DNA from: Tubiluchus corallicola
Lineage: Eukaryota; Animalia; Priapulida
NCBI GenBank assembly: GCA_030141605.1
Contig: JAQGDQ010000769.1
Coordinates: 34,823-98,822, forward strand
Reading direction: 5' to 3'
DNA: 64,000 bases
Shown: in pieces, positions 45,642 to 54,475 of the stretch
How the letters are laid out: each line of letters begins with the position of its first letter
Position numbering within the stretch: the first letter of the stretch is position 1
The notes under the pieces: model-generated
The model's input: only the letters and a program-made list of their open reading frames with translations
Database searches by the model: none
Told to the model about the DNA's origin: nothing
Made by a program: the position numbers and the translations under genes

Positions 45642-48600
45642 ATGGATGCCGATGAGAGGAAAATACCAAAAAACAACTATTTACTATTAAGTTTTGCCAC
45701 TGTTTTATTTATATGCATTTTATATTCTATAAGCAGTACAGAAAACCTTGTAAACTCAAGAGCACCTCGCGTTTATAGGAAAAAATATTTTTCACATTTC
45801 ATCGAAAGAAAAGACATTATATTATTCGTAGGTATTATGAGTGCCCCTGTTCGAAGAGACAGGCGTGATGTAATTCGCGCATCGTGGAAAAAGTGGTGTG
45901 ACGTTTTTGATGATGTCATCTGCTTATTTTTTACAGATGGACAGGACAGGTTTGGTAACAAACTAAATAAATCAGTGTTAGAGCCTTTGATGCTTGAAAA
46001 GAAATTAAACAATGACACAATTTTGACAGAGTCACCTAGTGGAATGAATTTTGGGAGGCGTTTGCTTTGGATGATGAGTTGGGCTTTACAAAGATATAAT
46101 TTCAAGTACTTTCTACGATTAGATGATGATACATTTTTGTGTCTGAAGAAATTAAGAGCTGAATTAGCTATTTATCCCTACACCAGGATCAATTGGGGAG
46201 CTTTGCATTGCAAGGGTTTGTATAAATTACTCTTCTTCAGTTGCCCAGTATCCATGGAAACGATAATCACAAAAAAGATTTGATTTTTTAAAAATTAAGC
46301 ACTTGATAAATGAAAACGAGCAAGTGATGGCATTTTTAAATTAAGATCAATAGCTTGTGGTATGCCTTACATCTAGTGCAAGATTTTTTCAAAGTTAACA
46401 AAACTCAGCAAACAAAACATTACTTACTTAGCAATAGGATATCACATTCGTGCATTGTAATGAGATGCACTATAGGCGATTTGAAAAGATATCAAGCGGC
46501 GTTAGTAAGATATCTTCTATATATTAATATTCTTGGTATGTTATATATATATTCGAGGCTACAGCTCCGACGAGGGCGCCATTTACAAGATATAAGATTT
46601 TTTATTTAACAACAATTTATTTATGCGCGAATTTTGATGTGCGTCAGATTTTTCTCTTTTGATAATCAATATTGCTATCTTGTAAATAAACGTTGTTGCC
46701 TGTCTTGCAACTCTTGAGTAAACGAAATGGCAGTTCTTATCAAATCACTGCAAAATTCTGGTGTTTTTGACTTTAAAGTGTATGTGAAGATTTTGTCTGA
46801 ATAGGGTTTAATTTTTTTATCAGGTATATCTTTGCCTGAGATCTGGCCACTGGTGCACCTTTCTTTAGTGGAATTAATCAAACGTTTCAACTGCTTGACA
46901 TCTTTTGCCATTCTCTGTTCACCATACGATTTCACTTTTTCATTAAAAACGTCAAGAAACGATCTATAGAGTTTGTAGTCGCCACGATTCCATTCTTCTA
47001 CCTTGTTCATAAGCGACTTACTGAGGATCATTTTATGGAGAGAACTGCGTGCATTAGTTGGTAAGACGACAACATCAGACAGATTCCAGTGGAGAAGATC
47101 TTTTAACAGAATAAGCGATTCTTCATGTTTTTCAGCGATCATCACAAGGTCAAATTCTCTGCGTATCATTTCCATTATGTCATCAACAGCCTGTCTGTTG
47201 CCCATTTTACTTACATCTAAACCGAAGAAATACAACATGACATTTCGCAAGCTATTTGCAGGGTATTTCCTAACCTTGGCAAATTTTTCTGGATATTGCA
47301 TAAACGAGGAAAAGTTTGCACCTAGTCGTTTTTCAAGTTCTTTGTAAGAATAATACGATTCCAACATGGCTGCAGGATGGCGAATAATAGTAACAAACTT
47401 TGCATTTGGCATCATTCTTTTCACCGTGTTTATACGTAATATGGTGTGTTGGCAAAATATATTGTAAATTCCTCTGGGATGTTGTATGAGCATGTCAGGG
47501 GTGAACGGTTTTTGAATACCAAGATGCTGGTGCCCTCTATGAGGAAGAGCAAATGACAGGTTGTGCTTCTTACCGTATCTCATAAATATATTCATTAGCG
47601 AGGTACTGGCACATTTGGGAATCTTGAGAAAGAAGATATTGTTTACGGGCGTATGAGGAACATATGAGAAGTTAGTATGCAAGAGGCCTATTGATCTTGG
47701 AAAAGAATACCTGAAAAATAGAGTAGCCTAGGTTAAATATCATTACACAGAAGAAAATTTAAGCAAATGTGTACCTAGCAGTTATAGTTGATATACATAG
47801 TTTTCAATGTGGCTTTATTTGACTATCATTGCTACCACCATTATTGCCAATATCATTTTGATCAATGTGATTCTATTTGACTATTGTTGCTGTTGTCATC
47901 ACCATAATCATCATCTTCATCATCACCATCATTACCATCATCATCATCATCATCATTGTCGTCGTCGTCTTAGTCGTACTCTTTGGCATTCGCATCATCA
48001 TTATTATCATTATATATATATATATATATATATAATGGCAATGCTTGATTGTACCACAATGTTTTAATCTCAACATCAATGACACTCTGTCGTACAAACC
48101 GTTTTTGTTAGTTCAACGTAAATATTGTTACAACTGCCACATCAATAAGTTGACATCTTGATCATTAGTTTAAGGATTTATATTGCAAGGAACGCTTACC
48201 TGTAATAGGTGAAGTATGATATCAAGCAGAGAAAATAAGAACTCAGCTGGAATAATAATAATACACCTAATTGTCGTTTCATAACAGTCATATTTAAGTT
48301 GTGCAGTTAATATGCAATATGCCTTCGGGTATCGGAAGCGAAAACGAGAAATATAAATTTAATAACCATCTAATTATGAACTCAATATTCTATGTTTTGA
48401 ACACATTGTTGGTCATTGTTGGTGACGGCGATTATTGAACATAAATACTAGCAGTCTATCGTCATTAACTTAACTTCAGCGAAATATGTCAACAAAATGT
48501 TAGAATACAATATTATCATGGTTAATGCTTTCAAAGCCTTGCTCAAACTCACGCATTTTTGCGAAAAGTATGAAACCAACGTTATAAGCCACTGGAACTT

Positions 48601-54475: not shown

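Follow-up and report, generated by a model that had tools for sequence, protein, structure and literature searches.

Analysis of a 64,000-nucleotide stretch of the Tubiluchus corallicola genome (hereafter the window, meaning the whole of the DNA analysed) revealed a predicted glycosyltransferase gene of the GT31 family whose long intron holds, on the opposite strand, a predicted sulfotransferase gene of the Gal3ST family. Two copies of a block of DNA from upstream of the host gene lie on either side of the sulfotransferase, and further genes for predicted glycan enzymes surround the pair (Table 1).

Table 1. Genes, repeats and duplicated segments of the window, by position; strands refer to the window as read.
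Feature	Position	Strand	Remarks
GT-A glycosyltransferase, GT2/GT13-like	236..1315	-	Pfam below cutoff, E 0.018; atlas neighbours GT13/GT2
GT11 fucosyltransferase-like	5782..6915	+	Pfam
CHST11/14-like carbohydrate sulfotransferase	12460..15444	+	candidate exon 1 12460-12598, exon 2 14489-15444
GT11 fucosyltransferase-like	22609..23682	+	Pfam
GT92 glycosyltransferase	32248..33705	+	Pfam
Block A1, left copy of duplicated upstream region	43823..45545	+	directly before host exon 1
Host GT31 (distant B3GALT6-like), predicted coding exon 1	45582..46215	+	membrane anchor, stem, N-terminal catalytic half with LRLDDD
Host GT31, predicted intron	46216..54011	+	7,796 bases, phase 1, GT..AG; position as in octocoral homologs
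B1, truncated Helitron-like 5' end	46506..46584	+	75 bases plus 4 shared flanking; 96% identical to right copy
Two AATAAA signals, sulfotransferase	46601..46621	-	end ~16 bases before duplication junction 46584/46585
Nested sulfotransferase, predicted coding exon 2	46675..47710	-	catalytic domain, both PAPS-binding motifs
Nested sulfotransferase, predicted coding exon 1	48200..48291	-	membrane anchor
Block A', right copy	48867..50656	+	inside intron, directly upstream of sulfotransferase; no exon 1 after it
Full Helitron-like non-autonomous element	50661..51527	+	A/TC start, hairpin, CTAG/T end; high-copy family
Host GT31, predicted coding exon 2	54012..54475	+	C-terminal half of catalytic domain
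GT11 fucosyltransferase-like	60090..61232	-	55% identical to 5782 copy

The first-pass annotation had joined two open reading frames in phase across 46215^54012 into one GT31-like protein, a model that is borne out by the open frame and by homologs spanning both exons. The spliced model has a single open frame of 365 amino acids, with an N-terminal hydrophobic segment and the motif LRLDDD; the annotated end at 54475 holds, and the start moves from 45642, a second in-frame Met, to the ATG at 45582. The donor after 46215 reads AGG/GTTTGT, of which GTTTGT deviates from the consensus, and the acceptor before 54012 consists of a polypyrimidine stretch ending in GCAG, with the junction falling in phase 1 within codon 212. 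Both host exons were matched in order by 55 of 178 GT31 homologs, many of the remaining 123 being short gene calls of exon-1 length; in homolog P0017, for example, residues 104-232 lie on exon 1 and residues 233-335 on exon 2. The spliced protein aligned across codon 212 with all 46 of the full-length homologs chosen, which had been picked mostly for matching both host exons (best E 5e-56), and the closest of those aligned was P0009 from Paramuricea, with 40% identity over residues 74-302. The host protein is nearest to proteins of octocorals.

Exon 1 alone scored 21.3 bits against Pfam Galactosyl_T, below the cutoff of 23; the cutoff was passed by all 30 GT31 homologs scanned, the GT31 atlas value was 0.95, and LRLDDD was invariant. 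Judged by its sequence, the host protein thus has the Galactosyl_T domain, the DxD motif and the type II anchor that define a GT31 enzyme. It shares Galactosyl_T, the DDD motif and the anchor with B3GALT6 and with an uncharacterised GT31 subfamily, whose members come from Paramuricea, Xenia, Montipora, Nematostella, Sanderia and Hydractinia and also from the brown alga Laminaria, but identity to these proteins reaches ~40% at best over the domain and the host falls in no starred clade. Four members of the subfamily (P0109, P0121, P0151 and P0147) are, in other organisms, fused to STELLO or other glycan-enzyme domains.

The nested gene, on the minus strand, comprises 48291-48200 followed by 47710-46675, with the donor CAG/GTAAGC and an open frame of 375 amino acids, and its coding exons and poly(A) signals all lie inside 46216-54011. 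P0019, a protein of 373 amino acids encoded on a 1443-base Logan contig, is 76% identical and aligns to both exons across their junction, which together with the open frame upholds the earlier prediction of a complete two-exon Gal3ST-family gene antisense within the 7.8 kb intron. Pfam PF06990 matched the predicted protein at 200 bits against a cutoff of 27 (E 6e-59), with most of the profile covered. The 5'-PSB and 3'-PB motifs are present, and K29, K32, R110 and S118 are invariant in the sulfotransferase alignment. In PF06990 and both PAPS motifs the nested protein resembles Gal3ST and galactosylceramide sulfotransferase, with 32-36% identity to named Gal3ST members, but it differs at two histidines: the first is conserved in 5 of 7 homologs and the second in 6 of 7, and the nested protein, like P0019, has Pro and Gln at these sites. 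In a weak alignment (E 0.23), HS2ST also has Pro at the first of these sites, and the nested protein keeps a His aligning with the second His of the HS2ST HGH motif, which we take to be catalytic. Since HS2ST has the same Pro, the predicted sulfotransferase may be active despite the two replacements. A PDB search with the nested protein returned nothing significant and hence no close solved relative.

We infer splicing at the host and nested junctions from sequence and homology. Silent changes make up 8 of the 16 allelic codon changes listed for the host and 8 of the 10 listed for the sulfotransferase, and none in either gene is a stop, so that both genes look to be under constraint by this measure. 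A retrocopy origin of the sulfotransferase was ruled out because the gene has kept its intron and there is no poly(A) tract. Run X1 also contains a second sulfotransferase copy, ~88% identical to 46699-46983 of the window.

Comparison with other GT31 genes places the host intron in time relative to its guest. A W-GW-HC motif was found in 29 of 49 homologs inspected; in 25 of these 29 similarity ends straight after HCxxx, apparently because the sequences are genomic gene calls entering an intron, and in the other four it runs on into exon-2 sequence. In P0009, which is an annotated protein from Paramuricea, the break falls at a residue five codons ahead of the conserved DE, matching split codon 212. 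The intron site is common to the host and its octocoral relatives, and on this comparison the host intron predates the gene nested in it. Not every member of the GT31 family has this intron: it is missing from three metagenome GT31 loci, where reading continues unbroken through the site. At four metagenome loci of 1-4.3 kb each, only GT31 matches were found and the other genes surrounding the pair in the window were absent.

Self-comparison of the window showed that 43823-45545 recurs at 48867-50656 and that 46506-46584 recurs at 50657-50735, with a ~1.7-kb upstream block and a Helitron-like 5' end flanking the sulfotransferase on both sides. A global alignment of the copies is collinear except for a ~960-base gap in the right copy, corresponding to exon 1 and the first 290 bases of the intron. 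Substitutions amount to 4.8% outside the microsatellite; the central 600 bases (44273-44872 versus ~49346-49960, including a CATACA microsatellite) differ by 0.7% and the arms by ~3-10%, and the near-identical core fits either gene conversion or an assembly effect or mis-join at the microsatellite. A search for a remnant of exon 1 after the right copy gave nothing convincing (best blastn E 0.51; a 29-codon tblastx stretch with E 0.007), and a search for sulfotransferase remnants left of A1 returned only one 111-base match, to low-complexity sulfotransferase intron.

Block A is composed of repeats, the CATACA microsatellite and low-copy DNA, with repeats making up most of A and all but 4 bases of B; because B is nearly all repeat, its match could be an independent insertion. 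The possibility that block A is a single transposon inserted twice is disfavoured, as part of the block is low-copy (depth 388 versus 10^4-10^6 for its repeats). The element at 50661..51527 has a 5' TC and a 3' hairpin with CTAG, lies between A and T and is multi-copy, features that we take to be hallmarks of a Helitron. It is whole on the right, and the left copy is cut after 75 bases, just past the AATAAA signals of the sulfotransferase. Fragments of this Helitron-like family that are older and have diverged occur at 24374-25001, 27392-27465 and 40787-40851 (68-81% identity).

On balance, we favour the view that an intact antisense Gal3ST gene sits in the old intron of an intact GT31 gene, and that it likely came to do so through local duplication of the host upstream region and exon 1 across a head-to-head neighbour, the original exon 1 then being lost. 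The ancestral order would have been sulfotransferase (minus strand), block A, exon 1 (plus strand), Helitron and exon 2. Block A, exon 1 and 75 bases of the Helitron would have been duplicated to a site just past the poly(A) signals of the sulfotransferase; the new copy may have been displaced, or it may have arisen in tandem and then shed its sulfotransferase. After this, ~960 bases including exon 1 would have been deleted from the right copy, so that the left exon 1 would now have to splice over the sulfotransferase. The right copy would be the original in the simplest reading, the direction of the event resting mainly on which Helitron copy is cut. The nested pair is probably young and made by local duplication, and the nesting is most likely a near-neutral by-product rather than a designed switch.

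The long-range gene order used here was taken from the assembly, and contigs from DNA runs, one of which (X1) may be from the assembly's own sample, provide a view of the alleles. In sample S1, contigs identical to the window had depths of ~91-128 and the second allele ~200-220. Across runs X1 and X2, allele depths stood at ~2:1 against the window haplotype, a ratio that a sample would show if it were triploid, pooled or locally duplicated. One zero-difference contig joins A1 to exon 1 (depth 91) and another carries the letters of A' (depth 128). The exon-1-adjacent block of the second allele has an 8-base deletion at 45493, which is absent from A'. The right end of A therefore occurs in three versions (A1 by exon 1, the second allele by exon 1, and A'), and this speaks against a false duplication of the simple kind. 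In the second allele, the 5' flank of the sulfotransferase is also linked into A, and A into exon 1, and a loose-end consensus from run X5 matches the left flank of A' a few bases further than that of A1, a weak signal.

These last two observations bear on a different history, in which the sulfotransferase came from elsewhere, template switching duplicated the flank (A, exon 1 and B) and the inner exon 1 was later lost, with the nesting again a by-product. Such an event would yield the same collinear duplication map, would account for a 3' breakpoint right at the sulfotransferase poly(A) region and is in keeping with the second sulfotransferase copy in run X1. Moreover, according to the available parts of three papers, nesting usually comes about when a young duplicate is inserted, often through an RNA intermediate, or when a gene originates de novo (PMC3814207, PMC5174743, PMC11694760). 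We nevertheless consider insertion improbable here, because the second allele, too, joins the 5' flank of the sulfotransferase to A, the X5 consensus speaks weakly for the A' flank, and the kept intron and missing poly(A) tract leave no place for a retrocopy.

Depth in the duplicated block bears on whether all haplotypes share the arrangement. Over the low-copy DNA of block A, in which one base of 143 distinguishes A1 from A', depth was 388, with single-copy bins ranging from 202 to 458; ~600 would be expected there if all haplotypes hold two copies and ~390 if the window haplotype alone does, summed depth being no copy number. Elsewhere in block A depth was lower (206-221 in X1 and 15-17 in X2) and did not exceed that of single-copy bins. 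Contig depth thus gives a hint, and weakly at that, that the other haplotype may be un-nested. Run X6, which we guessed to be RNA, covered almost only repeats and has no bearing on expression.

The same undoubled depth would also suit an artefact, in which two haplotypes were mis-joined at the CATACA microsatellite and the locus is truly un-nested, as would the near-identical core around that microsatellite and the finding that the two key junctions, 46584/46585 and 50656/50657, are bridged by none of the contigs listed, short contigs covering all parts. The three different forms in which the right end of A occurs, and the presence of both A1-specific and A'-specific letters at window-haplotype depth (~91-128), point the other way. 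A related possibility is that the host is a dead gene in which splicing of exon 1 to exon 2 has ceased, but neither frame is interrupted and at least half of the allelic changes listed are silent. Together, we judge an artefact or a dead gene to be unlikely, and continue with local duplication as the preferred reading.

All eight recognisable intact genes in the window encode predicted Golgi glycan enzymes, which belong to six families and extend over 61 kb (236-61232): three GT11 genes and one each of the GT92, GT2/GT13-like, CHST-like, GT31 and Gal3ST-like families. An N-terminal hydrophobic stretch is present in the main models of seven of the eight proteins; the CHST-like gene needs an upstream exon and acquires such a stretch through the hydrophobic candidate at 12460-12598, which joins in frame at G/GTAATT. 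The nearest relative of the CHST-like protein is from Priapulus (41%). When 148 other open reading frames of at least 62 amino acids were compared with Pfam (a selection that leaves aside, to within one frame, 13 microsatellite frames and one frame scanned before from a total of 161), only RVT_1 and DUF5641 transposon remnants scored above cutoff, in a scan that genes built of exons shorter than 62 amino acids could escape. At least three non-homologous enzyme families lie adjacent with no unrelated genes recognised between them, as in a gene cluster, and this cluster may continue past the window. Its enzymes likely act on shared glycans, secreted or at the surface, that would carry fucose, sulfate and probably galactose. 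To our knowledge, animal glycan pathways are generally thought to be scattered over the genome. The window cluster can be likened to plant biosynthetic gene clusters; coral terpene clusters are biosynthetic gene clusters of animals, and bacteria keep their O-antigen loci together in a similar way.

The literature that we found, which covers subscription journals thinly and includes parts of PMC12403961 and PMC6367135, describes no cluster of animal glycosyl- and sulfotransferases. The available part of a study of Alvinella pompejana reports expanded classes of carbohydrate sulfotransferases, beta-1,3-galactosyltransferases and GT92 enzymes, which overlap those of the window, but what it reports is family expansion and not co-location of unrelated families, whereas here six families lie within 61 kb (PMC12403961). 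The glycan-enzyme cluster is striking and apparently so far undescribed, and is a more interesting finding than the nesting. More speculatively, the window could be a gene cluster for one sulfated fucosylated glycan that passed from a head-to-head to a nested arrangement on the window haplotype, with another haplotype un-nested and carrying a single A, and with the type of glycan varying among individuals like a blood group; we find this full scenario rather doubtful.

The cluster also changes how the functions of the nested pair are read. According to the first-pass annotation, the host family adds galactose and the guest family sulfates galactose; that both belong to glycan-acting families stands, and the exact steps are labels taken from the families. 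B3GALT6 (PDB 9sp7) was the only significant solved match of homolog P0017 and covered only its N-terminal half (E 8e-10), and on this distant match the host is at most a putative beta-1,3-galactosyltransferase. GT31 also includes GlcNAc, GalNAc and glucose transferases. Sulfation at C3 of beta-galactose by the nested enzyme is likewise a prediction from its family. A single-sequence structure model, with pLDDT 38.7, was unusable.

The earlier annotation further proposed that selection keeps the nesting, either because it locks galactosylation and 3-O-sulfation together or because transcriptional interference makes the two mutually exclusive. The two families could, by their chemistry, act in sequence, and the available text of one study reports mutual exclusion by interference as a tendency among Drosophila nested genes (PMC5174743). 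Several observations nonetheless make such selection distinctly improbable. The genes were likely neighbours already, so that nesting would add little linkage; under mutual exclusion the sulfotransferase would be parted from the enzyme supposed to supply it; the rearrangement appears recent, its 4.8% divergence being near allelic levels in non-coding DNA; and the enzyme specificities are themselves only predicted. In addition, a sulfotransferase domain was found in none of the 30 GT31 homologs scanned for a fusion of the two activities (26 chosen mainly for length and four named ones). Nor does the nesting call for a special cause such as a pathway lock, given that all eight window genes encode predicted glycan enzymes and the duplication scar explains the nesting mechanically. 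Because every neighbour in the window is a predicted glycan enzyme, a related guest is unsurprising and even expected, and neither a lock nor an on/off switch is needed; the relatedness of the two genes follows from the region as a whole being a cluster of predicted Golgi glycan enzymes. This same cluster makes it plausible that host and guest act on the same glycan.

Nested genes are common, amounting to 9.5% of D. melanogaster genes according to the accessible part of one study, which also agrees that the two genes of a nested pair usually have less in common functionally than genes that are close neighbours (PMC3814207). As in opposite-strand nested pairs of Drosophila and mammals, the guest here is a multi-exon coding gene antisense in a long intron. 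The present pair differs from them in that host and guest are both glycan enzymes, and in that the scar suggests capture of a neighbour by the host through the copying of the host's own exon 1. Exon-gain routes to nesting may, reportedly, have been described by Assis et al. in 2008. The birth of nested genes is rarely readable in DNA, and the scar at this locus suggests that insertion was not the route. Should haplotypes differ in the arrangement, the locus would offer a natural way of testing whether transcriptional interference results from nesting. The nesting alone is of a known kind with an unusually readable origin, and the interest lies in the cluster and in the possible haplotype difference. 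A compact cluster of six families would allow an unknown sulfated glycan of an invertebrate to be predicted and rebuilt from sequence. It would also be a reason to search the genomes of animals for similar clusters.

Transposon remnants within the window lie at 26637-26912, 57907-58742 and 63469-63996 and include a reverse transcriptase, a retrotransposon-like DUF5641 and a weak Baculo_FP-like open reading frame. A 2-kb inverted duplication (1728-3750 and 7856-9898, 97.8% identical) flanks the GT11 gene at 5782-6915, and is possibly a substrate for inversion or the trace of a recent local rearrangement.
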